Origin: a virus | Taxonomy: Duplodnaviria; Heunggongvirae; Uroviricota; Caudoviricetes | Virus record (IMG/VR): IMGVR_UViG_2579778884_000014 | Reading direction: 5' to 3' (one strand) | DNA: 41,415 nt | In this document: piece after piece, positions 22,114 to 41,145 of the stretch | How the letters are laid out: each line of letters starts with the position of its first letter | Numbering within the stretch: position 1 is the first letter of the stretch | Program-made: the position numbers and the translations under genes | Notes under the pieces: generated by a model | What the model saw: only the letters and a program-made list of their open reading frames with translations | Database searches by the model: none | What the model was told of the DNA's origin: nothing

Positions 22114-22686
22114 TTAGCCCATCATTTTTCTATACGCCTCTGCAGCCTGCTCCGGCGTTAAGTTGGTAATTTCTGTTCTGACTGGTCCTCCATCAGCGCC
22201 AGTCACTTCATTTTTGACGTTGTCTTTAAACGCCTGAACAGAAACATGACGCCCAAGCAACTCAAGGTTTTTAACCTTATCAGGCCACTTAATCTTTTTA
22301 AGGATCCCGACCATTTCTCTGTCATCTCCTCGCCCCTCAAACATTTCAGCGAGGTTAAATCCACTCAGGTACCGACGCCACGATTCCGGCCACGCAGACA
22401 GAGGCTTAATACTTAAATCGTCCTCCAGGATGTCAGCCACATCGAGCCTGTCGATCTCAACCAGTCGCATCAGCACATAATTCGCATCAATGCCCAGTTG
22501 ATCAATACGCTCCTGCTTTAGCTCGTTGATGCGGGCGCGTATCTCAGGTTTACCGTATAGTTCAGCCCCCGTAACATGTGCTCGCCTGGAGGCGTAGCCT
22601 GCGCGAATAGCTGCTTGTGTAGCATTCAGATCGACAAGAAACTCGCGACAAAACACCTCGTGTTTTGCTTTCAGCTTCTTAGTCAT
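22114..22686 (-). CDS. Terminase small subunit (P27-like family)
   Basis: 190 aa; N-terminal ...[25 protein letters not shown]... matches the P27-type small terminase signature as I recall it. Confidence 0.7.
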
Positions 22687-23735: not shown

Positions 23736-24077
23736 TTACTCCTTAGAGCCACCAAACTTGTTACCGATTACTCGCATTGCAGCCCCACGAATAGCATCGA
23801 CACCGATCAGCCCAACACCACCACCAATGGCAACAGAAAGCGATTTAGGCCATCCAACATACTCAAGAGCGGATGCAAAGGTCAGCGTCAGAGCACCACA
23901 GAGCAAAATCTCAAGCGTTTTTCGTTTCCAGCCGCCGCCACCGCCAAAATAGGCAATGCGCAAACCAGCCATAACAATTGACATAACCACTGCGCCCAAC
24001 GGCGTATCTCCACGCCACCAACTTTGTAAGAGTTCCAGTAAGTCAGGCCAGGAATGAGGAGCATTGTGCATTTTCAT
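23736..24077 (-). CDS. Holin (class I-like, dual-start MKM motif)
   Basis: Starts ATG-AAA-ATG behind a GGAGGTG Shine-Dalgarno, like lambda S107/S105; three predicted transmembrane segments and a charged C-terminus. The track ORF extends further upstream without a ribosome-binding site. Confidence 0.7.
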   Translation of the reverse strand: MKMHNAPHSWPDLLELLQSWWRGDTPLGAVVMSIVMAGLRIAYFGGGGGWKRKTLEILLCGALTLTFASALEYVGWPKSLSVAIGGGVGLIGVDAIRGAAMRVIGNKFGGSKE

Positions 24078-24380
24078 ACTTCCCACCTCCGCCATTACGG
24101 GGTGTTGTTGAAAGGCGGGCCCTGAATACAAAAAAAAGTTCGCCATAGCGAACCTTGTTAAATTTGTTAAAAAAGGAGGTTATTTAACATAATGTATGTT
24201 ATAGGAACCACACGATCCCCGCTCGCAATAGATTTGCGATGAAAGGCCTATTTAATCAACTTAAGTGGTCCAGAATGACGAAATTCGAGTGAATAAAAGG
24301 TGCATAAAAAAGGGCAAAAACTGCATAGCGTTTTTTCGCAGCGAAAGCCCTGTTTTATTAACTTTTCCCCAGAATGGGGC

Positions 24381-24847: not shown

Positions 24848-25270
24848 TTATGCCGCCGAGCAGCTCCTACGCAAAGTCCTGATAGCCTGAGGCTTTGACT
24901 GAACCGACTGATCCATTTCGAGCACCACATCCAGCATGGCTAAGCAACCGTCAATAAATCCCTCTGCCGCCTGAAGCCTCTTCAGAACGTGGGTGTGAGA
25001 TACGCCGAGCTTCTCACCCATCGCCCGCACGGGCATGGCCTGGACGTAATGCCACTCAAGGAGCGTGCACAGATACGGATCTTTTTTCTTCAGGCAGCTC
25101 ATAGCGGAGTTGATGATAAGACCGTCATTGTCACTGCATTTCAGCCTTCCAGACTGCGTCGCGGGTAGCAGATTCTTAAACCCGGCTGCAACAGGAGGAA
25201 AGTAGACACTACCACCTTCACTCGCTGCCCAGCCACCCCAGCGCTCTAAAACCTGTTGAATATTACGCAT
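24848..25270 (-). CDS. Late-gene antiterminator Q (phage 82/21-type)
   Basis: 140 aa; N-terminus MRNIQQVLERWGGWAA... matches the Q-family signature (MR.IQ.VLERWG.WAA) as recalled; lies upstream of the lysis cassette. Confidence 0.8.
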   Translation of the reverse strand: MRNIQQVLERWGGWAASEGGSVYFPPVAAGFKNLLPATQSGRLKCSDNDGLIINSAMSCLKKKDPYLCTLLEWHYVQAMPVRAMGEKLGVSHTHVLKRLQAAEGFIDGCLAMLDVVLEMDQSVQSKPQAIRTLRRSCSAA

Positions 25271-25400: not shown

Positions 25401-25580
25401 TGTACCAACCTGTACCCACCTGTACCAGCTCTTTTCAAACCTTTTCCCCAAGCGACTTATATATATATATGGGGTTCTTAGTAATTAGGTTGGTACAGAT
25501 GGTACAGTTGGTACTGGCCTTTAAATTCAATTAGTTAAAATGTACCAACCTCTATTTTGAGGTTGGTACAGGTTGGGACA
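25401..25580. repeat. Iteron array with AT-rich spacer (putative replication origin)
   Basis: Three direct TGTACC(A/C)ACC-type copies (25401..25430), a (TA)n tract (25459..25470), three inverted copies (25488..25518), a perfect palindrome TGTACCAACCTC-TATTTT-GAGGTTGGTACA (25541..25570) overlapping the primase stop codon, and a degenerate GGTTGGGACA copy. Confidence 0.6.
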
Positions 25581-27744
25581 CCGCCTCAAAAATTCGAGTC
25601 ATTTTCCCCCCAATTCGCCTTTGGGCACGCTTATACCCGCAATTTTGCAAAACATTACTAATTCGCATTTCTTCGCGTTTTCCGATGCGGTCAGGATTTA
25701 GCCCAATCGCATCACGCAAAACATCACTTGCGCGTAAAAATTCGCAATTTCGCGGAAGTTCATTAGTCATCAGGTCTGGCGTGTCGAGCCATTTCTCTAC
25801 CGTTTCAAGCCAAGCATCCTTGATGGTGTACTGTTCATGGACACTCGCTGCCAGTTGTTCAGCCTCACGGAACTGGATACCCCCCAGACGCTGAAACACC
25901 TCACGAGCCTCAGCCCAAAGTAAAAGGAGATCTCTTTTTATCGCTTTCACGTCGACTTTCGACACTTCCACGGGGAGCCAGCGACGGTTACCAGTCTTGT
26001 CCGCAAGGAATTCGTCCTCATTGGTGGTACCAACGAACACCAGGCGACGAGGAAACTGGGTGGCGAACTCCCGGTATTTCGGGATCCAGTTTTCGTGAGT
26101 ACGCGTCACAAACGCTTTGATTGACTCCAGCTCTTTGGTATTAAGTCCGCGCAGTTCACCAATCTCTGCCACCAGCCGACCACGCATTTTTCGAGCGAGA
26201 TCATCGTCTTTTTCGGCAAAAGAGATTTCAGTAAAAAACGCAGGATCAGGGCTCAGTGCCTCCACTCCGGAAGACTTACCGCAGCCCTGCGGACCAACGA
26301 GGATCGGCACCATATCCGCTTTGATGCCTGGCTCCAGTACTCGCCCCGCCAACGCGGTCCACATGTACATAGACACCGCACGGGTATAAGGCGTGTCGGC
26401 GGTACCGAAGTGCGTATGGTAGAAACATTCGATGCGCGGCACGCCATCCCACTCCAGTCCGTTCAGCCAAGTGATCGCTGAATCGAATGGTTGTTCATCG
26501 GCTGCAAGTAACACCACATCGCGAATAAGTTCACGACCAACAGGTTTAAATCCCCGCTTTTCCATCGTGATGCGCAGGCGCGCATAATCCGCATCGGTGA
26601 ATGCCCGCCATTGTCCGGATCCTGCAGGGGCAAACATGATTTCGTCGCGGAACTGGTCAAAGCGAATATCGATGTCCACAAAATCAGGGCGTACTACTGC
26701 TTTGGCTGCGTTGCTGATTGTTGCCTCGATACGCCCCCATTTATCACGCTCGAAAGCAGGCAGCGGTAAAGGTTCCGCCACTTCGGTGCTGGTCAGATCT
26801 TCGAAATCGTCGTTGCGGATCCCGATGGCATTAAGGAAATCTCCGTCATCACGATGCGCACAACTGGCATGCAGGCATTTAAAATGCCCCTGCTCAAAGC
26901 CCGCGGTTCCCGCAGGAAAATAAACTGTGCTTGTTGGATCGCCCCCGCTACTGTGGCCGTCTTCAAACGGACAGCGGATATATCGTTCACCATTTGCGCC
27001 ATCCAGCAGCGTCCAGCCATTGGCATCAAGATATTCAGCTGTATCATCCGTCGCGCCGGGCGTGAATGCTGATCGGTCGCGCATCTTCGTGTTGCCCGCT
27101 TCGGTGGTTACCGACACAGGGAGTTGTTCAGCCAGGCGCTGCCACAGCGTTTCAAGCTGCTCACCAGTAATAGCCGGAGGTTCATCCGGCAAACCGCCGT
27201 CCCATTCAATACGCGCGCCGCTGCTGTGCGTACCGCAGGCAACGAACTGCTGCCCGTTCGCCAGCAACTCGATAATGCCCATATCCCCCGCCAGGCGATG
27301 GATACGCTTACGGAAATCACCATCAACGGCCAGCAGATACAGACACTTATTACTGTTTGCTCGCCAGCGTCGCGGCGGCAACTCACCCAGAAGTTGCACA
27401 AGCGTTTTGCGAATATCTGCCTGAATGTCTTCATCTTCGCTATCACAGTCCAGCGCCAGCCAGCCATGGCCTGTACGCACGCAGATGCCATAATCCGGTT
27501 CATTCGACCAGCGGGCAAAATCATGCTCAGTAACAACATGCCCGGTCCATTGAGCAATACCGGTGACCTGGCGGTCCCGGTTATAGCGACTCGGCGTCTT
27601 ACCCAACGCTTTCAGTTTACTATCAGGGGATATGGTCGCACTGGGGTTACATACAACTGGGAGAAGATGATCAGTTCTCCCCAATACCAGGTCGAAATGA
27701 AACCACTCATCAGGCGTAGCTCCCCATGGTTTGCTATCGGACAT
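25552..27744 (-). CDS. DNA primase-helicase (Prim-Pol-like N-terminus, VirE/D5-like P-loop C-terminus)
   Basis: 730 aa; Walker A ...VGPQGCGKSS..., Walker B-like ...RLVFVGTTNE..., cysteine/histidine cluster (CPFEDGH...CLHASCAH) typical of primase zinc-binding regions. Confidence 0.8.
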   Translation of the reverse strand: MSDSKPWGATPDEWFHFDLVLGRTDHLLPVVCNPSATISPDSKLKALGKTPSRYNRDRQVTGIAQWTGHVVTEHDFARWSNEPDYGICVRTGHGWLALDCDSEDEDIQADIRKTLVQLLGELPPRRWRANSNKCLYLLAVDGDFRKRIHRLAGDMGIIELLANGQQFVACGTHSSGARIEWDGGLPDEPPAITGEQLETLWQRLAEQLPVSVTTEAGNTKMRDRSAFTPGATDDTAEYLDANGWTLLDGANGERYIRCPFEDGHSSGGDPTSTVYFPAGTAGFEQGHFKCLHASCAHRDDGDFLNAIGIRNDDFEDLTSTEVAEPLPLPAFERDKWGRIEATISNAAKAVVRPDFVDIDIRFDQFRDEIMFAPAGSGQWRAFTDADYARLRITMEKRGFKPVGRELIRDVVLLAADEQPFDSAITWLNGLEWDGVPRIECFYHTHFGTADTPYTRAVSMYMWTALAGRVLEPGIKADMVPILVGPQGCGKSSGVEALSPDPAFFTEISFAEKDDDLARKMRGRLVAEIGELRGLNTKELESIKAFVTRTHENWIPKYREFATQFPRRLVFVGTTNEDEFLADKTGNRRWLPVEVSKVDVKAIKRDLLLLWAEAREVFQRLGGIQFREAEQLAASVHEQYTIKDAWLETVEKWLDTPDLMTNELPRNCEFLRASDVLRDAIGLNPDRIGKREEMRISNVLQNCGYKRAQRRIGGKMTRIFEAVSQPVPTSK

Positions 27745-27960: not shown

Positions 27961-28080
27961 TGCTTTCACCTCATACAATTTTAGTGGTATTTAGCAACAA
28001 CAAACGAGGTTTGTCAAATACAACAAAAATTGTTTTTAATGTGGGGATACACATTAATACAACCCAGAAGGACTAATCCC
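27961..28080. promoter_or_regulatory. Immunity switch region: divergent promoters and dyad operators
   Basis: Dyads ACAAAC-GAG-GTTTGT (28000..28014) and AACAA-AAA-TTGTT (28022..28034); back-to-back -35 hexamers (TTGACA on minus / TTGTCA on plus at 28011..28017); plus-strand -10-like TTTAAT at 28035..28040. Confidence 0.5.
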
Positions 28081-28704
28081 ATGTCTCTCGCAGCCCGTTT
28101 TAAAGCACGTCGTTTGGAATTAGGAATGACTCAAGTGGAAGTAGCGAATTCTGCAGGGGTTAGCCAACAATCCATAGAATCCATCGAAAGTGGACGAACC
28201 AGAAAGCCACGCAATCTTCTGGATCTGGCTAAGGCCTTGAAATGTAGCCCAGACTGGCTACTGAACGGTAAAAATATTATGCCTCTCGCGGAGATAAGTA
28301 CCAGACGCATACCTATATTAAGTTACGTTCAGGCAGGAGAGCTTACAGAAGCAAGAGACATAACAGATCTGACAGGGGAATTTGAATATATTTTGGCAGA
28401 CTCTGACATTCCAGAAACATGCTTCGCATTACGTATCGATGGCGACAGCATGCAACCAGAGTTTAAAGAAGGAGACATTGTTATCATCGATCCTGATCTA
28501 TGTCCTGCACCAGGGGAGTTTGTTGTCGCCAAAAACGACGGTCACGAAGCTACATTTAAAAAATACCGTCCATTAGGAATCGGCATCGACGACTTTGAAT
28601 TAATCCCCCTAAATCCTGATTACCCTATTTTTCGTAGTGCAGATATGAACTTACAGATCATAGGTGTAATGATCGAACACCGTATTTACCGCCGTAAACG
28701 TTAG
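28081..28704 (+). CDS. CI-like repressor (HTH plus S24 LexA-type autopeptidase)
   Basis: N-terminal HTH ...MTQVEVANSAGVSQQSIESIESG...; C-terminal ...IDGDSMQPEFKEGDIVIID... carries the Ser/Lys dyad context of S24 peptidases. Start at the ATG at 28081 (AAGGA Shine-Dalgarno); the track's upstream start is a TTG. Confidence 0.85.
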   Translation: MSLAARFKARRLELGMTQVEVANSAGVSQQSIESIESGRTRKPRNLLDLAKALKCSPDWLLNGKNIMPLAEISTRRIPILSYVQAGELTEARDITDLTGEFEYILADSDIPETCFALRIDGDSMQPEFKEGDIVIIDPDLCPAPGEFVVAKNDGHEATFKKYRPLGIGIDDFELIPLNPDYPIFRSADMNLQIIGVMIEHRIYRRKR

Positions 28705-30388: not shown

Positions 30389-31690
30389 ATGCCAGACGTT
30401 CATGCACAACTTTCTCCATCATCAGCGCATCGATGGATGCGCTGCCCAGGAAGTCTGGCGCTGGAGGCCACACAACCGGATAAAGAAACAACTTTTGCAA
30501 TCGAGGGCACTGCAGCGCATGCACTTGCCGAAAAGGTGCTGCGCAACCGCCAGAGCCACCCGGAGCACTATGCAGGTTGCAACGTCGCGATGTTCCTTGG
30601 ATCCTATCCTCTTGCTGAGCACCCGGATGATACTTCCGGCCCGCAGGTAGATGAGGAAATGGTCGAAGCCGTTGGTCGTTACGTCGACACTGTTTGGGCG
30701 CTGGCGCAGGGCAATGAGCTGCTGGTCGAGCAGCGTGTCGACTTCTCCCATATAACGGGTGTGGAAGAATCTTTCGGAACTGCCGACAGCATAATCATTG
30801 CTGGTAGCGAATTACAAATCCACGACCTGAAATATGGCAAAGGCGTCCGCATTGATGCAGAACAAAATGAGCAACTACAACTGTATGCTCTGGGTGCGCT
30901 CGAACAATTCAGCATGCTGTATGACTTTGAGACTGTAAGATTATTTATTCACCAGCCGCGGCTTAACCACGTTTCAGAGTGGGCTCTGACGGTGGAAGAG
31001 CTCCAGGCGTTCGGTGAACGGGCACAGGAGGCCGCAACCAGTGCGATCCTTGTTCTCAATATTGCTGAATGCGAAGGCATTGAGACACTACCGCTGGAAA
31101 ACTTCATACCTGGAGAAAAACAGTGCCGCTTCTGTAAAGCAAAAGCTATTTGCACTGCCCAGAAAATGCAGCATTTACAAACAGCGGCCAGCGACTTTGA
31201 AGATCTGACAAAGCCTGTCAGCGAAATAATCACCAATGCCAGCGCACGTGTACCTCTGTTAACCATTGAGCAGCTTGCGGAGATCTATAGCCAGACCGAC
31301 TTTATTGAGTCCTGGCTAAAGGCAGTACGGGACCGGGTTCACAATGAACTCAATGCCGGACATCCGGTACCGGGGTTTAAACTGGTAACAGGAAAACAAG
31401 GTAACCGGGCCTGGAGTGATGAAGAGGCAGCTCGCGCACTTCTGAAGGACCAGTTCAGGTACAAAACTGAAGAAGTATTCGACTTTAAACTTATTAGTCC
31501 CACAAAAGCCGAAAAACTTATCAAAAAGGCCAGTCCGCGCCGTTGGTCAAAAGTCGAGGCACTGATAACACGAGCTGATGGTAAACCCACCGTCGTTCCC
31601 GAGTCAGACCCACGCCCCGCACTCAATATCAACCCTGTAAATGATTTCGACGACGTATCCGACGATACGCTAACCGCAGACCTCATCTGA
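30389..31690 (+). CDS. PD-(D/E)XK nuclease, Cas4/RecB-like (DUF2800-type)
   Basis: 433 aa; N-terminal ...[14 protein letters not shown]... and C-terminal cysteine cluster ...[10 protein letters not shown]... as in Cas4-like Fe-S nucleases; precedes an SSB-like gene and a family A polymerase. Confidence 0.7.
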
Positions 31691-31705: not shown

Positions 31706-32254
31706 ATGAAACTGAAGCTGAACAATGTTCGTCTGGCCTTCCCGTCTCTGTTTGAAGCTAAAACTGTAAACGGCGAAGGCGATCCGCGTTTCTCCGCAGT
31801 ATTTTTAATGTCTCCCAAACACCCACAACTGGAAGAAATCCGTAAAGCTATGAAGCAGGTAGCGAAGGAAAAATGGGGGGAGAAGTGGGAGTCCATTTAT
31901 AACCAGCTGGAGAAAAAACTCAATCTGTGCCTGCATGATGGTGATGAAAAAGCAGAGTATGAAGGCTTTCCCGGCAATTTCTTCCTGAACGCTGCTAACA
32001 AAGCGCGCCCAGCTGTTCTTGATCGCGATCGTTCGCCACTAATTCAGGCTGATGGACGTCCCTATGCAGGGTGCTATGTAAACGCCGTTATCGATATCTG
32101 GGCACAGGACAATAATTTCGGTAAACGCATTAATGCCTCACTCGGCGGAGTCCAGTTCCTGCGAGACGGCGATGCATTCGCTGGCGGCGGAGTGGCAAGC
32201 GCTGACGATTTCGACGATATCAGCGAAGGTGCTGATGCTGAAGCACTAATTTAA
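31706..32254 (+). CDS. ssDNA-binding protein-like (DUF2815-type)
   Basis: 182 aa with an acidic C-terminal tail ...DDFDDISEGADAEALI typical of SSB partner-interaction tails. Confidence 0.6.
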   Translation: MKLKLNNVRLAFPSLFEAKTVNGEGDPRFSAVFLMSPKHPQLEEIRKAMKQVAKEKWGEKWESIYNQLEKKLNLCLHDGDEKAEYEGFPGNFFLNAANKARPAVLDRDRSPLIQADGRPYAGCYVNAVIDIWAQDNNFGKRINASLGGVQFLRDGDAFAGGGVASADDFDDISEGADAEALI

Positions 32255-32290
32255 AAATATTCATCCCCCAGCTGCGTGCTGGGGGATCTC

Positions 32291-32944
32291 ATGAGGGAAA
32301 GAATAATGTCACAGCCCGTATTAACTAATTACCTTAAAACTCAAATCATCAATAACGCACTTGAGAAAGCGGGTATCCCCAAACGTAAATCAGCACTACG
32401 AGCTGCTCGTGTTGAATGGGCCGAACGTGTTCGGCTTGCAGCTATCGGGGGCGTAGAGAAAGAAGCTGAAATATTAAAAAATATAAAAAAAATAGAAACA
32501 CTGGTATCAAAATTCCCCGAAGCATTAAAAACCGCCAATAACATTATCAGGGAAGAGTGTTACATGTGTCTGAATCTGGCAGGTTCTCGGGTTACCGTCT
32601 ATTTCAACGGTAACTACCGAGGATATGAATCAGGGTCACCAGACCATATTCACAAAATCGCGCCGGGGGAATTTACCCTTCTGGCAAATGACCCTCTAGT
32701 TACAGAGTTTTACGGGTTTGATACACTTTATGAGCAGATACAGAGCGATGAGTCAGACATTCGACAGAATGTCAGCGCTGCACTCAGTAAAGTGCGCACA
32801 GTTAAGCGCCTGCTGGAAGAGTGGCCTGAAGCTAAAGAACTTCTGCCAGCCGATGCACCATCTGCTCCGCTTCCGCCAGCTATACGACGCGAAACTCTCA
32901 ACGAAATGATCGGCCTCCCTTCTGACGAAGGGGTAGATGCTTAA
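32291..32944 (+). CDS. Hypothetical protein
   Basis: Track ORF starts at a GTG at 32276 inside a GC-rich hairpin; the ATG at 32291 (GGGGGA Shine-Dalgarno) or 32306 is more plausible. Confidence 0.5.
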   Translation: MRERIMSQPVLTNYLKTQIINNALEKAGIPKRKSALRAARVEWAERVRLAAIGGVEKEAEILKNIKKIETLVSKFPEALKTANNIIREECYMCLNLAGSRVTVYFNGNYRGYESGSPDHIHKIAPGEFTLLANDPLVTEFYGFDTLYEQIQSDESDIRQNVSAALSKVRTVKRLLEEWPEAKELLPADAPSAPLPPAIRRETLNEMIGLPSDEGVDA

Positions 32945-33011
32945 TATTTCTTATAACAAAGGCTGGCTTAAGAAAATAGTTATCCAAACCAGCCTACCGC
33001 AATACTAAAAA

Positions 33012-33281
33012 TTAAAATTCATTGAATTTAAAAAGACATTTCCCTATTGGATTGCCATAGTCTCTACATACCGAAATGCTGTCCCATACAGGCTGAGCCA
33101 AACACCCAAGAAAGAACCCAATAAGCGCAAAAATTATAATTTTGGGAAGAACACGATCCTTAGGACCTTCTTCACGTTCGAGCCATGCGCCACCAGCCCG
33201 AACTATTCTCCCTAAAATATAAAGAATGGGGAAAGCAATAATACCTATCAATGAAAGTATTCCGATACCAAAGCTAAACAC
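33012..33281 (-). CDS. Small two-helix membrane protein, antisense insertion
   Basis: 89 aa from a GTG start with a strong AAGGAGA Shine-Dalgarno; two hydrophobic helices; AT-rich island on the strand opposite the surrounding operon. Confidence 0.65.
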   Translation of the reverse strand: MFSFGIGILSLIGIIAFPILYILGRIVRAGGAWLEREEGPKDRVLPKIIIFALIGFFLGCLAQPVWDSISVCRDYGNPIGKCLFKFNEF

Positions 33282-33337
33282 CGCCGTCTCCTTGTTTATT
33301 TACACCTACATAACCATATATCACACAAGGTTATTTT

Positions 33338-35401
33338 ATGTCCAATATACTATGGGGTGACCTAGAAACCTATTGCGAAATCCCTATTACGAACGGTACC
33401 CATGCGTATGCCGAAGGCGTTGAAGTGATGCTGTTCGCATGGGCTATCAACGACGAGCCCGTAAACGTGTGGGATATCACTGCCGGTGGTGGTATTCCAC
33501 ACGGCTTATACGAAGCAATCGCAGCCCCTGAAACCCTGCTTTATTTTCATAACTCTCACTTCGACCGCACCGTCCTGCGTTATGCAATGCCGCGCCTGGC
33601 ACCGCCAGTCGAACGTTGGCGCGACACAATGGTGCAGGCGCTGGCGCACGGTCTCCCGGGGTCTCTGGGGGAACTCTGCGAAGTACTAGGCGTCCCGCAA
33701 GACAAAGCGAAGGACAAAGAAGGTAAAGCGCTGATCCAGCTGTTCTGTAAGCCACGCCCGAAAAACAGCAAACTGCGCCGGGCCACCAGCAAAACCCACC
33801 CGGAAGAATGGCGGCGCTTTGTTGCTTACGCCGGACTGGATATCGAGGCAATGCGCGAAGTCTATAAACGTCTGCCGAAGTGGAATTATCAGGGGACAGA
33901 ACTGGCGCTCTGGCATCGTGATCAGCAGATCAACGACCGGGGCGTCTGCATGGACATTCAACTCGCGCGCGCTGCGATCGAAGCGGTAGACCAGGAGCAA
34001 AAGCGCCTGGCAAAGCGTACACAGGAAATGACTGATGGCGAAGTGCAGGCAGCAACACAACGGGACGCGTTGATTAAGCACATCGTTGAATCCTACGGTG
34101 TGGAGCTACCAGACATGCAACGCAGTACTCTGGAACGTCGTATAGCCGACCCCGATTTACCATCTGCCGTGAAAGAACTGCTGGCTATCCGCCTGCAGGC
34201 CAGTACTACCAGCACCAGTAAATACAAGGCACTGATGAAAGGCGTAAGCCACGACGGGCGCTTACGCGGTACGCTACAGTTCTGCGGGGCGTCACGTACC
34301 GGTCGTTGGGCCGGACGGCTATTCCAGCCCCAGAACCTTCCCCGCCCTTCACTAAAACAGGAACAAATAGACGAAGGCATCGAAGCACTGAAAGCCGGAT
34401 GTGCAGACCTGCTGTTTGACAATATCATGGAACTAACCAGTTCAGCGTTACGTGGCTGCATTATCGCGCCAACAGGCAAAAAACTGGTGGTAAGTGACTT
34501 GTCGAACATTGAAGGCCGTATGCTGGCATGGCTGGCGGGAGAAGAATGGAAACTGAATGCATTCAGAGAGTACGACGCCGGAACGGGTCCGGACTTATAT
34601 AAACTGGCGTATGCAAAAGCTTTCGATATTGCACCAGATGATGTTGATAAACACATGCGTCAGATCGGTAAAGTCATGGAACTCGGTCTGGGTTATGGAG
34701 GTGGTGTATCGGCTTTCATCACTTTTGCTCTGGTTTACGGTCTCGATCTCGACGAGCTGGCGAACGCCGCACTGCCAAACATTCCCCGCGATGTTATCCG
34801 CGAGGCGAAAAGCTGGTACAACGAATCGGTTAAACGTAAGTCGACCTTTGGCCTGTCCGAGCGTGTATTCATCGCATGTGACTCGCTCAAGCGCCTGTGG
34901 CGCAGGGCGCACCCGGCGACCTGCGATTTCTGGTACGAACTGGAGCGCACCGTCCGCACTGCAATCGCCACACCGCAAAAAACATTGTATTGCGGTTATC
35001 TTAAAATCCGCCGCGATGGCGCGTGGCTGCGCATACAGCTACCATCCGGACGCGCTGTATGCTACCCCTCTCCGGTTATCGAAAAAGGGAATATCACCTA
35101 TATGGGTGTTAACTCTTATTCGCGTAAATGGCAACGACTCAAAACCTACGGCGGAAAGCTGGTAGAGAACGTCACCCAGGCGGCCGCCCGCGACGTTCTG
35201 GCCGGAAACATGCCGCTTATCGAAGATGCCGGTTACAGCATTGTGCTGACGGTACACGACGAGGTGATCACCGAAGCACCTGACACAGAAGATTTCAACG
35301 ATAAAGCGCTTTCCGCGCTTCTCTCCACTAACCCCGAATGGGCGCCCGATATCCCACTGAACGCTGGCGGTTTTGAGGCGTACCACTACCGTAAGGATTA
35401 A
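33338..35401 (+). CDS. DNA polymerase, family A, with 3-prime-5-prime exonuclease domain
   Basis: 687 aa; exo motif ...GDLETY..., polymerase motif A-like ...[18 protein letters not shown]..., motif B-like ...[16 protein letters not shown]..., motif C ...[12 protein letters not shown]... Confidence 0.85.
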
Positions 35402-36602: not shown

Positions 36603-37603
36603 ACCCTAACGCAGCACAATGGCTGCGTAACCTTATTGCTGCAGGTCATATCGCCCCGGGTGAAGTTGATGAAAGGAGTATCGAAGATGTCGCACCAGAC
36701 GACTTGCGCGGATTCACACAGTGCCATTTCTTCGCCGGGATCGGCGTCTGGTCTTATGCTCTGCGTCTGGCCGGATGGCCGGATAACAAACCGGTCTGGA
36801 CAGGAAGTTGCCCGTGCCAGCCTTTCAGCTCGGCTGGTAAAGGCGCTGGGTTTGATGACGAGCGGCACCTATGGCCAGCACTATTCCACCTCATCAGCGA
36901 GCGACGCCCTAAGCTGGTATTTGGCGAACAGGTTGCGGGAGTCAATGCCTGGTTCGATCTTGTACAAACTGACGTGGAAGCAGTGGACTACGCCTTTGGG
37001 CTTGTCCCGTTTCCGGCTGCGGGCGTCGGTGCCCCGCATATCCGAGATAGAGCGTATTGGGTGGCCGACGCCAGCGGCGAGCGATCACAGCGGTGGCGAA
37101 AGCGCCTCAATAGCATTGAGGAAGATGTCTGGAGATCGTCGACCGTCCGGCAACACGCTACACAGCTCCCTGCGGAATTTTGCTCACCTAGCGGGGTGGT
37201 ACACCCCAACCTGCAACACAAACCCACAGCCGGAGACAAAACGCGGTCTAGAAACCTTAGCGGGACTATCCAGATTAGCGGGATGGCCGACAGTGACGAC
37301 GATCGACAACAACCAAGTTCGTGCCGAGGGCGCAGCGGCCAATCATACCGAACGGGGAACGACCCTCGGCGGCGCTGCGAGAATCTGCGGCCCAATACGA
37401 TTAACGGCTGCTGGGATGGTGCTGACTGGCTCCTCTGCCGGGATGGTCGCTGGCGGCCAGTTGAATCCGGCACATGCCCGTTGGCTAATGGGATTACCTC
37501 CAGAGTGGGACGACTGCGCGCCTACGGCAACGCGATAGTCGCACCAGCTGCCGCAACATTCATCCGCTCGTTTATGGAATGCGCAGGATACGACCTTATT
37601 TAA
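36575..37603 (+). CDS. DNA (cytosine-5)-methyltransferase, reading frame uncertain in the middle
   Basis: GTG start with GGAGGGG Shine-Dalgarno; motif I ...FFAGIG..., motif IV ...PCQPFS..., motif VI-like ...GEQV..., motif VIII-like ...HIRDRAYWV..., motif X ...YGNAIVAP.... The overlapping ORF 36636..37538 also looks coding. Confidence 0.7.
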
Positions 37604-37920
37604 TGCCACTCACATCTGGCATGATACCGTCCAGAAGGTAATTGCTTATATACAACGGAGCCGCCCATGGCATAAGTATAAGCATGAAGTTTTGTCCAGA
37701 AGTCCCCATAAACTAGTATTGGGGCTAAAAATTTTGGATCGCTAACCATAGATGTAGCAGGAAGCTCGAAACCTTTAGAAAGAATGTTTACCAGTGAAGG
37801 GTAATTTTCAAAATCAGTGCTATTCCCGCCCACCTCTAAAGCATCCAGTTCAAAGTCGAGCACTCCACCATTTTTGTAATACTCCGGAACAGTTAACCCT
37901 GATGTTAACAAAGTAGCCAT
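37600..37920 (-). CDS. Hypothetical protein, antisense insertion
   Basis: 106 aa with a perfect AGGAGG Shine-Dalgarno 8 nt upstream of the ATG; AT-rich island; convergent with the C5-methyltransferase, 4 nt 3-prime overlap. Confidence 0.6.
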   Translation of the reverse strand: MATLLTSGLTVPEYYKNGGVLDFELDALEVGGNSTDFENYPSLVNILSKGFELPATSMVSDPKFLAPILVYGDFWTKLHAYTYAMGGSVVYKQLPSGRYHARCEWH

Positions 37921-39349: not shown

Positions 39350-39546
39350 GCGAGAAACCCGACGATTTACTCACCCCAGATGAAGTATGCCAAAAGTTAG
39401 GTATTACACAGAAAACGCTATGTGAGTGGAATATTAAGCATCGTCATCGGGCTATCCTGGCACCAATTCGTTTCAGTGCAAAAGTAGTTCGTTATGAGCG
39501 CCGAAATGTCGACGCTTTTATTCAAAAGTGTCGCAGCCAGTATTAA
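39346..39546 (+). CDS. Excisionase / AlpA-like HTH protein
   Basis: 66 aa; ...LLTPDEVCQKLGITQKTLCEW... fits AlpA/Xis-type HTH; next to and convergent with the integrase. Confidence 0.55.
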   Translation: MSEKPDDLLTPDEVCQKLGITQKTLCEWNIKHRHRAILAPIRFSAKVVRYERRNVDAFIQKCRSQY

Positions 39547-40940
39547 CCTCGCCGCCGTAGCAATGCAACCTGCGCAAGTATGCTCCGCTCGTGAGCCTCG
39601 AAAGCTTCGCGCTTTAACGCAATCTCTTCCTGTAAAATCTCATCAGAAAAGTCGTAATGTTCTGCCATCGGGTCATCTGACTTGCTGGAGTGGTGAAGGC
39701 AAAGGAGGCTGATTTCCCTTCGGTCTGATCGGGAATAGCCTCTTTCCTTCATCAAGGCAATAACATTGCTCTTAAGGAATTTACGGCACATCGTATTAAA
39801 TGCACCGTCTTTCCCTTTAACAGTCCCATCATGTTTTATTCCTTTTACAGCCCCGTCCGGGCTGTATGTTTTCACCAGCTTATCCAGTGATCGTTTTGAA
39901 AATGGCTGCATTGGATCACGTGGCTGCAAAAATACATAATCCCTGTTGCACTCAGGAACTGAATCACGCCAGGCTTTCTGCTCGTCGATAATCCGCCGGA
40001 TCTCAGGCGTTATCGGCAGGCGGAAAGCCTTTTGTGTTTTCATAGCCCCTCGCATGCCGATAACCCCTTCCGGATAAACAATTTCACCAGCCTCCTCGTG
40101 AACGTAGTCCCAGCGCAGGTTATGGACATTAATCGGACGAACGCCAGTGATGATCATGAAGCGAACAGCATTCTTCTGGTGTACAGAGGTGCAGGCAGCA
40201 ACATTGAGCCAGAGTCGGGCGATTGATTCAATATCGGTAAAAAGCCGTGTGGGGGTAGGTTTCTGTATGCGGGAGGAAACATAATCATCTGGCAGACTGG
40301 CGGCAACATTGCGGCCGTTGCAAAGAGTAGGTGCGCAGAACTTCCAGAACCGACGGAGCTCGGCAAACAACTCCAGGGCGTTATTGTTCGAGCGAGTGGC
40401 GATCCACTCGTCCAGCACTTCCACCAGCCGATTGTATGTTACGTCGCTGAACACCTCACGCTCGCCGAACGTTGCTTTAATCCGGTCGATACGCACCCCG
40501 TAGGTTGTGAAACTGTCCGGGCTCAGCTTCTGCCGGGCGACTTTGGCTTTGAGGTCATCCCGGTACATTTCCAGCGCTGCATGTACTGACTCTGCCCGCA
40601 AGCCACAGTCAGCCATACCTAGCGCTTTTTCGCGCGCCAGCTGGATAGCGAGCTCCGGCCACTCGCCGAGCTTTTTACCCTTGAGGCCCATCTTTTTTGG
40701 AAACTCGGCGTAAAATGTAACCTTACCGGCTTTGCTGAAATCGATACGGAGATAGTTCTCTTTTTCGTATTTGGAACGGCGAGCCACGCCGGAAGCAGCG
40801 AGGATGATTTTGGCAGCAGCAACACAGATTTTCATGTGTGCGCTGGTATAGGGGGGTTTACAGGCGTCCCATTTTTCAGATGCGGCTAAAACATCGTCAT
40901 TATTGGGGCTATCCGGATTATGTGTTACAGTGCGCGGCAT
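39543..40940 (-). CDS. int: Tyrosine integrase
   Basis: About 465 aa; C-terminal catalytic region includes ...TGVRPINV..., ...LLCLHHS... and ...EHYDFSD.... Start at the ATG at 40940 (AAGGA Shine-Dalgarno; track start at 40946 is a TTG). Terminal position beside a host gene. Confidence 0.85.
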   Translation of the reverse strand: MPRTVTHNPDSPNNDDVLAASEKWDACKPPYTSAHMKICVAAAKIILAASGVARRSKYEKENYLRIDFSKAGKVTFYAEFPKKMGLKGKKLGEWPELAIQLAREKALGMADCGLRAESVHAALEMYRDDLKAKVARQKLSPDSFTTYGVRIDRIKATFGEREVFSDVTYNRLVEVLDEWIATRSNNNALELFAELRRFWKFCAPTLCNGRNVAASLPDDYVSSRIQKPTPTRLFTDIESIARLWLNVAACTSVHQKNAVRFMIITGVRPINVHNLRWDYVHEEAGEIVYPEGVIGMRGAMKTQKAFRLPITPEIRRIIDEQKAWRDSVPECNRDYVFLQPRDPMQPFSKRSLDKLVKTYSPDGAVKGIKHDGTVKGKDGAFNTMCRKFLKSNVIALMKERGYSRSDRREISLLCLHHSSKSDDPMAEHYDFSDEILQEEIALKREAFEAHERSILAQVALLRRRG

Positions 40941-41145
40941 TCTCAATCCTTATCTGCGTAGGCGCAGAAAACAAGCTCACACATACAAGTCTTTTCTACG
41001 GGACAAAATGCAATGTGTTGCGGTTTTGTGTTGCTGGACTGAGTTTATCAAGGTTAAATGCACTGGATCAACATACAGTAAGTTAATGACAGTAAAACAT
41101 ACAAACTCGATACAACTTACTGATTTTAAAATGATTTAACGGTAA

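Follow-up and report, generated by a model that had tools for sequence, protein, structure and literature searches.

Here, we analysed a 41,415-nucleotide (nt) stretch of viral DNA, the Caudoviricetes record IMGVR_UViG_2579778884_000014 (the whole stretch is called the window below), and in it ORF89, an open reading frame (ORF) of 89 amino acids (aa) that lies antisense within the early operon. The window is a temperate phage, found as a prophage in Escherichia coli, with lambdoid-type regulation and its early operon on the plus strand. We found that ORF89 is almost certainly a real gene for a membrane protein and a moron, in the sense of Juhala and Hendrix as used in PMC3594210, that occupies a hotspot of cassette exchange directly upstream of a family-A DNA polymerase (PolA). 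By analogy with known phage proteins, we tentatively suggest superinfection exclusion, i.e. defence of the lysogen, as its most likely role. The gene and its putative expression signals are as follows:

33012..33281, minus strand: ORF89 coding sequence, 89 aa with a GTG start, taken from the list of ORFs
33287..33293, minus strand: Shine-Dalgarno sequence AAGGAGA, with a 5-nt spacer to the GTG
32950..32995, minus strand: probable intrinsic terminator, a hairpin (32995..32960) followed by UUUGUUAU
33315..33344, minus strand: candidate promoter (inferred), with a -35 element TGGACA (33344..33339), an 18-nt spacer and an extended -10 element TGaTATATG (33323..33315)

An earlier reading made from the DNA letters (the original prediction) had placed an antisense gene for a small two-helix membrane protein inside the replication operon. 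This location, in the early operon of replication and DNA-metabolism genes, was confirmed, and the 89-aa minus-strand ORF, its GTG start, the AAGGAGA motif and the AT-rich gap around them were all recovered at the coordinates it had given. The encoded protein is identical to RefSeq WP_000490741.1, which the Prokaryotic Genome Annotation Pipeline (PGAP) annotates as a hypothetical protein.

ORF89 is a real gene under purifying selection and belongs to an unnamed family that is carried mainly on mobile elements. An exhaustive HMMER search of 1.84 billion cluster representatives returned 118 proteins at E <= 1e-3, 36 of them at E <= 1e-10; nearly all are 85-95 aa long, align from end to end and share 28-51% identity. 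A word-indexed protein search had returned nothing but E. coli copies of 98% identity or more, and the orphan status that it suggested was overturned by these 118 homologues. In an alignment of 79 family sequences (positions refer to full-length ORF89), G59 and C72 are invariant, C82 is found in 99%, G55 in 94% and both G7 and Q63 in 92% of members, while Y21, R28, A32, W33, P40, R43 and G76 each occur in 72-87%. The N-termini of the family line up with the GTG start of ORF89, and the spacing AAGGAGA-5 nt-GTG recurs in the orthologue from BFo2, a thrips symbiont, with TAGGAG and AAGGGAG at the corresponding place in the Serratia and Pantoea members. The BFo2 orthologue (locus L005, 8001-8297) is annotated with 98 aa from an upstream ATG; this Shine-Dalgarno arrangement and the family alignment suggest that translation really begins at the GTG, for a product of 89 aa as in E. 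coli.

The BFo2 orthologue is the closest relative outside E. coli and allowed us to estimate selection. Between the two orthologues, the proportions of nonsynonymous and synonymous differences (pN and pS) are 0.25 and 0.69, which corresponds to a ratio of the respective rates (dN/dS) of ~0.16, an approximate value as dS is near saturation. ORF89 shares 65% aa identity with its BFo2 counterpart, compared with 72% for PolA, 74% for the DUF2815 protein and 62% for the DUF2800 protein. A dN/dS of ~0.16 and a divergence like that of the phage backbone indicate that ORF89 evolved as a protein and diverged together with its prophage. Within E. coli, dN/dS has no power: the E. coli allele occurs in seven IMG/VR contigs (two loci identical to the window and five variant), and across these seven loci there is a single coding polymorphism, V71A.

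The family has escaped classification. Pfam holds no family for ORF89 at E <= 0.01, and scans of ORF89 and the 79 members against Pfam, PHROGs, NCBIfam and PADLOC gave no meaningful family, only scattered low-complexity matches to transmembrane (TM) segments; two members match the unannotated PHROGs phrog_8574 and phrog_7460. YebO is not among the 25 Pfam families most often matched by the 79 members at E <= 0.1, beyond which there are 43 weaker or single matches. A profile search of the PDB with the family yielded nothing below E = 0.2, and the family alignments hold no conserved stretch of 7-10 columns. A single-protein locus search of species-representative genomes found nothing, and a collection of 50,697 phage genomes gave no tblastn match to any of three members used as queries.

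What kind of protein does this family comprise? The original prediction described two hydrophobic helices and nothing else. The two helices are borne out by hydropathy and AlphaFold, whereas the second half of the description does not hold, given a conserved loop motif and a cysteine-containing tail:

Residues ~4-24: first TM segment (TM1)
Residues 25-47: loop, with the motif AW..R..PKDR
Residues ~48-66: second TM segment (TM2)
Residues 67-89: tail, with C72-x9-C82

Kyte-Doolittle peaks span residues ~3-24 and 44-66. With the family alignment as input, AlphaFold predicts a helical hairpin (mean predicted local distance difference test score, pLDDT, 92.2; predicted template modelling score, pTM, 0.70) with helices at residues 8-34 and 44-74 and a short one at 79-86; fold searches returned generic TM hairpins only. 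Across the family the loop carries the conserved motif AW..R..PK[DE]R, and the tail contains the cysteine pair in 78 of the 79 members, the C-x9-C spacing likewise in 78. Lysines and arginines average 5.1 per loop, 0.2 per N-terminal tail and 2.4 per C-terminal tail, and the loop exceeds both tails combined in 71 of the 79 members. Positively charged residues of inner-membrane proteins stay on the cytoplasmic side (the positive-inside rule). By this rule, the wealth of lysine and arginine in the loop points to an N-out/C-out orientation with a cytoplasmic loop and a periplasmic tail. The protein is thus predicted to insert into the inner membrane with both ends outside, and a disulfide would link the end of TM2 to the last helix in the periplasm. 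Polar, glycine and cysteine residues are conserved on both sides of the membrane, which argues for a specific interaction and not for generic membrane disruption.

The composition of the gene and its putative expression signals suggest a self-contained unit. GC content falls to 0.37-0.41 over 32900-33400, with 0.46-0.60 in the flanks. ORF89 itself has a GC content of 0.39 and a GC content at third codon positions (GC3) of 0.30, compared with 0.54 and 0.58 for the polymerase and 0.51 and 0.50 for the DUF2800 gene. As its GC3 lies far below that of the neighbours, the AT bias acts at synonymous sites and is not just a matter of hydrophobic codons. A good Shine-Dalgarno sequence and a GC content below that of the surroundings are shared by the E. 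coli, BFo2, Serratia and Pantoea copies.

Behind the gene, the hairpin, with UUUGUUAU after it, lies 17 nt past the stop codon. Its arms (32960-32969 and 32986-32995) are 10 nt long each, 90% complementary and 16 nt apart; the hairpin AGGCTGG-n21-CCAGCCT that had originally been noticed is the 7-nt core of this same structure. Folded as minus-strand RNA, it reaches -23.5 kcal/mol (z = -3.1), an energy equalled by 2 of 200 shuffled sequences, and its U-tract is imperfect. A consensus terminator scanner made no call at this hairpin because the loop is longer than 8 nt. On the plus strand the hairpin is not followed by a T-run, and read-through toward the polymerase is therefore not obviously blocked. 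The BFo2 and Serratia copies have unrelated hairpins after their stop codons. In front of the gene, the candidate promoter was obtained with a scoring of our own that is less strict than the consensus scan. Its -35 element overlaps the polymerase ATG, and the promoter is kept in the BFo2 orthologue as well as in an unrelated 229-aa cassette at the same site in strain FDAARGOS_144.

Is ORF89 a constant part of this prophage lineage? The relevant stretch is made up as follows:

32276-32944, plus strand: Nmad5-family gene, left neighbour of the gap (Pfam PF18757, E = 3.6e-56)
33338-35401, plus strand: family-A DNA polymerase, right neighbour of the gap (Pfam PF00476)
32921..33310: exchangeable cassette, as defined against the Nmad5-carrying FDAARGOS_144, in which it is replaced by 744 bp with a 229-aa minus-strand gene
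32255..33337: wider variable slot from the DUF2815 stop codon to the polymerase ATG, filled here by Nmad5 and ORF89

The gap between Nmad5 and the polymerase measures 393 nt, and the starts of the divergent ORF89 and polymerase genes are 56 nt apart. The left neighbour had been taken for a hypothetical gene; Pfam now identifies it as a member of the Nmad5 family. As a query we used 801 nt that reach from the 3' end of Nmad5 across the island into the 5' end of the polymerase gene, which were compared with 5,426 complete E. coli genomes. The query was matched once each in 151 genomes. The island is present in 32 of these, always at 99-100% identity, while the remaining 119 match only from 33311, 33338 or 33346 onward. 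The presence/absence comparison across related prophages that the original prediction had proposed thus reveals a variable gene. The pattern it had named as contrary to its idea, an ORF lost from a retained intergenic region, was not what we observed, which counts in favour of the gene: prophages without ORF89 have a different gene in place of the entire island. Strictly, ORF89 is a replacement allele and not a pure insertion; its relatives carry other cassettes.

At least four unrelated cassettes of this kind occur. In FDAARGOS_144 (blastn breakpoints 32920 and 33311), a gene of 229 aa follows a diverged Nmad5. In relatives without Nmad5, the wider slot (blastn breakpoints 32254, which is the DUF2815 stop codon, and 33338 or 33346) holds a single minus-strand gene of 209 aa (O103:H2 12009 and phage vB_EcoM-606R2), 166 aa (strain A16) or 199 aa (STEC1590, where it comes after a BRO-N gene). 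In all relatives examined, a minus-strand gene, though not the same one, stands immediately 5' of the polymerase. One of the four alternatives is carried by 102 genomes, with one cassette per genome, and in an evenly spaced sample of 60 the 209-aa gene occurs 39 times, the 229-aa gene 16 times, the 199-aa gene four times and the 166-aa gene once; this leaves ~17 of the 119 genomes unassigned. Where a record was sampled for both the cassette and the polymerase, the two matches adjoin each other. Three of the alternatives, at 29-35% GC, encode predicted membrane proteins, the 229-aa protein being soluble, and neither Pfam nor PADLOC has a family for any of them. The distance between cassette and polymerase is 21-61 nt in all cases, so that the cassette promoters must overlap the polymerase start.

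One record departs from this picture. In NZ_CP024650.2 (E. coli BH100 substr. MG2014), 800 nt of the 801-nt query are matched, and it is the only full-length match without a 'hypothetical protein' annotated beneath, while two later BH100 assemblies are identical to the window. This anomaly is probably a single-base assembly error that shifts the frame of the small ORF.

According to PMC3594210, morons have a deviant GC content and a promoter and terminator of their own and are expressed from repressed prophages. Compared with collinear relatives, ORF89 is extra DNA with sharp breakpoints, present in 32 of the 151 genomes, and its composition deviates from the surroundings, a contrast that is repeated in BFo2, Serratia and Pantoea. 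ORF89 is hence known in kind, a prophage moron or accessory cassette for a small membrane protein, of a family that is itself uncharacterised.

The relatives of ORF89 are found at the same site and elsewhere. In BFo2 (65-70% identity), the gene occupies the same slot and diverges from the polymerase, and its other neighbour is a DUF2303 gene, not Nmad5. The Serratia nevei member (45-55%) has the same position in a prophage remnant, in which only the last 83 residues of DUF2800 are left, DUF2815 is frameshifted, SNF2 is fragmented and, in one strain, PolA lies in three pieces; the small gene is intact, with an identical protein sequence in all contigs. In Pantoea ananatis (46%), the prophage is a different one, of lambdoid type, and the gene sits there antisense to its neighbours, with the lysis cassette on one side and the terminase on the other. 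Metagenomic members adjoin a helix-turn-helix (HTH) repressor together with a YoeB pair, an integrase, ImmA-type peptidases, a phage DUF5681 gene or IS1595, and one adjoins components of an ABC-3C conflict system (CTD7/MC3). A copy on a Sulfuricurvum plasmid is a lone gene on the opposite strand. No partner gene recurs across the contexts that were examined.

Some details of these contexts stand apart. A 111-aa member (L031 / L032, 7528-10237) is co-oriented between a 152-aa unknown gene and the ABC-3C genes CTD7 and MC3. Upstream of this group are genes for a giant protein with RTX or cadherin repeats and for its type I secretion, for HlyC and for Pmp3, a small membrane protein; nowhere else does a member look operonic rather than standalone. 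The Serratia nevei remnant (L026-L028, 9320-10100) ends abruptly past the C-terminal DUF2800 fragment, beside chromosomal YCII, QueH and TonB genes. On the Sulfuricurvum plasmid (L034, 5375-5662), the member likewise has a convergent YciI-family neighbour; the recurrence of such a gene is probably a coincidence.

We propose the following scenario for the way in which ORF89 might act. Transcription of the gene would begin at a weak promoter of its own, which overlaps the start of the polymerase, and the minus-strand transcript would end at its own hairpin, whereas transcripts of the early operon would read through. ORF89 would in this manner be made in the lysogen while the cI-type repressor holds the early operon off, and upon induction the converging early transcription would tend to silence it. 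Such a layout would be that of a textbook moron (PMC3594210). At the inner membrane, the protein may bind a component of the host or of an incoming phage and thereby block genome entry, so that the lysogen would be protected without cell killing, in the way of HK97 gp15, T4 Imm and P22 SieA. The antisense orientation and the S24 repressor fit with expression in the lysogen, with which they are only compatible. The residues conserved on both sides of the membrane, the missing conserved partner and the solitary retention in Serratia favour a membrane protein with a specific interaction, of the exclusion or modulator type, over a free-standing toxin.

Several observations speak against exclusion as the role, or against parts of this scenario. 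A sigma-70 consensus scan called no promoter in the region, and the candidate promoter is not conserved in Serratia; its conservation elsewhere could instead reflect the overlapping ribosome-binding site and start of the polymerase. Searches of Pfam, PHROGs, PADLOC, NCBIfam and PDB revealed neither sequence nor fold similarity to known exclusion or defence proteins. The argument from the hotspot is an indirect one, guilt by location, as the alternative cassettes are without known function too. Some members, e.g. that of the Sulfuricurvum plasmid, lack phage-linked neighbours, and retention in Serratia could reflect a small mutational target. The original idea of a superinfection-exclusion, abortive-infection (Abi) or toxin gene has thus fared unevenly: a small, variable, antisense two-helix membrane gene is what we found, but the proposed function draws on anatomy and context, and Pfam, PHROGs, PADLOC, NCBIfam and the PDB link the protein to no family of known exclusion proteins, Abi effectors, holins or toxins.

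A first alternative is that ORF89 is an Abi effector or membrane toxin, either an oligomer that depolarises or permeabilises the membrane when triggered by infection or a type I-like toxin held in check by the antisense transcript of the operon. A small hydrophobic two-helix protein would suit both versions, and its position antisense to a long operon makes such a transcript available; the GTG start may limit translation, and one distant member lies beside the YoeB toxin-antitoxin pair and another beside conflict-system genes. We nevertheless regard this alternative as improbable. The neighbours differ in every context examined and neither partner nor antitoxin is conserved, unlike in type I toxin-antitoxin or two-gene Abi modules. 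In the Serratia remnants the gene is intact alone while the opposing operon decays, conservation resides in specific polar and cysteine residues and not in bulk hydrophobicity, and ORF89 is longer than typical type I toxins. There is also no match to a PADLOC Abi model or to Rfam, which disposes of a known RNA and leaves room for an uncatalogued antisense one.

Equally improbable, in our view, is a modulator for lysogenic conversion unrelated to phages, which would tune a host sensor kinase, transporter or protease in the manner of MgrB, SafA or AcrZ. The cytoplasmic loop motif and the periplasmic cysteine pair suggest a specific protein partner, some members occur in contexts without phage genes, and small envelope proteins are often actors in stress responses (PMC3594210). 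Loci of diversifying conflict are, however, a better fit for mutually exclusive alleles that are exchanged fast between near-identical prophages, a TIR (Toll/interleukin-1 receptor) candidate defence gene occupies the adjoining slot of relatives, and Pfam and NCBIfam reveal no homology to known small regulators.

We consider it very unlikely that ORF89 serves the phage's own cycle, as a membrane anchor or regulator of replication, a factor of lysis timing or a control of the polymerase by transcription interference. In its favour, the family-A polymerase is the immediate, divergent neighbour of the gene in three genera, and the putative promoter overlaps the polymerase start. Yet ~80% of the related E. 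coli prophages, with polymerase 5' ends 91-97% identical, do without ORF89, and the phage of the Pantoea member does without such a polymerase nearby, for which reasons a functional link to the polymerase was rejected. As to lysis, the prophage has an S-type holin and a Q antiterminator of its own. A class II holin would belong to the lysis cassette and show an N-in/C-in topology with a charged cytoplasmic C-terminus, whereas ORF89 lies in the early operon, with a predicted N-out/C-out topology and a periplasmic cysteine pair; the Phage_holin_3_1 gene (23736-24146) is ~9 kb off in the late cluster on the minus strand, opposite to the early operon. An accidental ORF within an AT-rich recombination scar or regulatory spacer, for which one may cite that 1.3-1.6% of shuffled versions of the gap contain an ORF of at least 89 codons, that no promoter was called and that no named family exists, is virtually ruled out by the 118 homologues with conserved length and motifs, the dN/dS of 0.16, the pLDDT of 92.2, the conserved Shine-Dalgarno sequence and start, and the PGAP annotation.

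Returning to exclusion as the proposed role of ORF89, we may ask in which surroundings it would act. Outside the slot, the prophage comprises the following genes:

Minus strand: structural and lysis genes, including the terminase small subunit (22114-22686), the S-type holin (23736-24146) and antiterminator Q (24848-25270)
25552-27744, minus strand: VapE/DUF5906 gene
28030-28704, plus strand: cI-type HTH-S24 repressor
30389-31690, plus strand: DUF2800 nuclease, early operon
31706-32254, plus strand: DUF2815/Enc34 single-stranded DNA-binding protein, early operon
Plus strand: further early-operon genes, namely methyltransferases, VRR-NUC and SNF2
39543-40946, minus strand: integrase

The module shows further signs of variability. 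Nmad5, whose PGAP start lies ~30 nt downstream of the longest-ORF start (a shorter form), is itself accessory: prophages of the FDAARGOS_144 type carry a copy at 89.7% nucleotide identity, those with the 209- and 166-aa cassettes have none, and its place is taken by BRO-N in STEC1590 and by YfdP and DUF2303 in BFo2. Its GC3 of 0.40 is also under that of the backbone. A second antisense AT-rich gene (37600-37920, minus strand; GC 0.42, GC3 0.35) lies between a C5 cytosine methyltransferase and SNF2 and encodes a 106-aa soluble protein without a Pfam or PADLOC family. In the Serratia remnant, a copy with 51% identity (L026, 5330-5650) adjoins the fragmented SNF2 gene, and FDAARGOS_144 (L003, 6373-7083) and BFo2 (L005, 3936-4646) have at the corresponding site a multi-TM protein of 236 aa that is unrelated; the region looks like a second cassette slot. 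The third variable position in the module is that of the TIR gene. In phage vB_EcoM-606R2, a 253-aa TIR gene (PF10137, CAP12-PCTIR_TIR) that matches the PADLOC candidate system PDC-S35 at E = 1e-108 comes right after the polymerase (L001, 5129-5890), and a TIR gene of the same Pfam family adjoins the decayed polymerase in one Serratia strain (L027, 6052-6813). Finally, a near-perfect 11-nt direct repeat, CCTATTGCGAA / CCTATTACGAA with the copies 14 nt apart (33369-33393, plus strand), falls within the initial 60 nt of the polymerase gene, barely inside the stretch that has to contain the cassette promoters; it may be a chance occurrence.

It is well established that anti-phage functions can be found among prophage morons and in hotspots, but defence-finder pipelines and annotation pass over most small membrane proteins. 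ORF89 is 'hypothetical' in every source and part of no curated family. Its family nonetheless comprises at least 118 sequence clusters across Enterobacterales and beyond, with a structural signature that can be tested, and its slot is a tight cassette-exchange site beside the polymerase in a common E. coli prophage lineage, of which many carriers are urinary or other human isolates. If exclusion is the true role, this locus supplies several small single-gene determinants of phage resistance, with a bearing on host range in phage therapy and on the phage susceptibility of clinical E. coli lysogens; if it is not, ORF89 is an ordinary uncharacterised moron. A bolder extension, which we think somewhat doubtful, is that the C-x9-C family forms a new, widespread class of single-gene anti-phage exclusion at the inner membrane in prophages, plasmids and conflict islands, and that the slot upstream of PolA and the one before SNF2 constitute an undescribed hotspot at which diversifying selection drives the exchange of at least five unrelated defences, all of them small membrane proteins. 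In that event, new exclusion mechanisms could be drawn from one compact source. ORF89 holds no surprise in principle, but presents a concrete candidate, cheap to test, for a new exclusion family and a defence hotspot.

How does ORF89 compare with known systems? A literature search by protein accession and phage name returned nothing, and a limited one for a published description of the hotspot found none. MgrB is a chromosomal protein with one TM helix, in which a periplasmic cysteine pair matters and which acts by binding an inner-membrane protein. Its likeness to ORF89 is an analogy only, as NCBIfam and Pfam indicate no homology. T4 Imm is of similar size and has two predicted TM segments; scans of ORF89 and the 79 members against PHROGs and Pfam detected no homology to Imm or to SieA. 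T4 Imm and P22 SieA resemble ORF89, a predicted inner-membrane protein, in being phage-encoded proteins of that membrane that act alone (PMC11436027, PMC10883804), and both are listed as blockers of DNA injection (PMC11436027). Unlike ORF89, Imm belongs to a phage that is virulent, and SieA is a far larger protein.

The protein gp15 of HK97 shares with ORF89 the small size, the inner-membrane location (predicted for ORF89) and the nature of a self-contained add-on gene of deviant GC content inside a phage operon. It is expressed from the prophage, resides in the inner membrane and blocks genome entry by other phages (PMC3594210). Its gene belongs to the tail operon and lies on the same strand, whereas ORF89 is antisense to an early operon, and the C-x9-C tail and the loop motif are specific to the ORF89 family; Pfam scans of the 79 members indicate no sequence relationship to gp15. 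With the hotspots of P2, P4 and other elements, the slot has in common a fixed site between core genes, mutually exclusive unrelated cargo and otherwise collinear prophages. Some cargo of such hotspots is defensive (bioRxiv 10.1101/2021.01.21.427644 and 10.1101/2024.10.15.618418); in PADLOC-DB v2, ORF89 and the four alternative cassettes are unmatched and only the 606R2 TIR gene has a match (PDC-S35). The present slot differs from the P2 and P4 hotspots by its lambdoid regulation and its place upstream of PolA in a DUF2800-DUF2815-PolA module, and its cargo differs in consisting of single small genes, mostly for membrane proteins, all of which point away from the polymerase.

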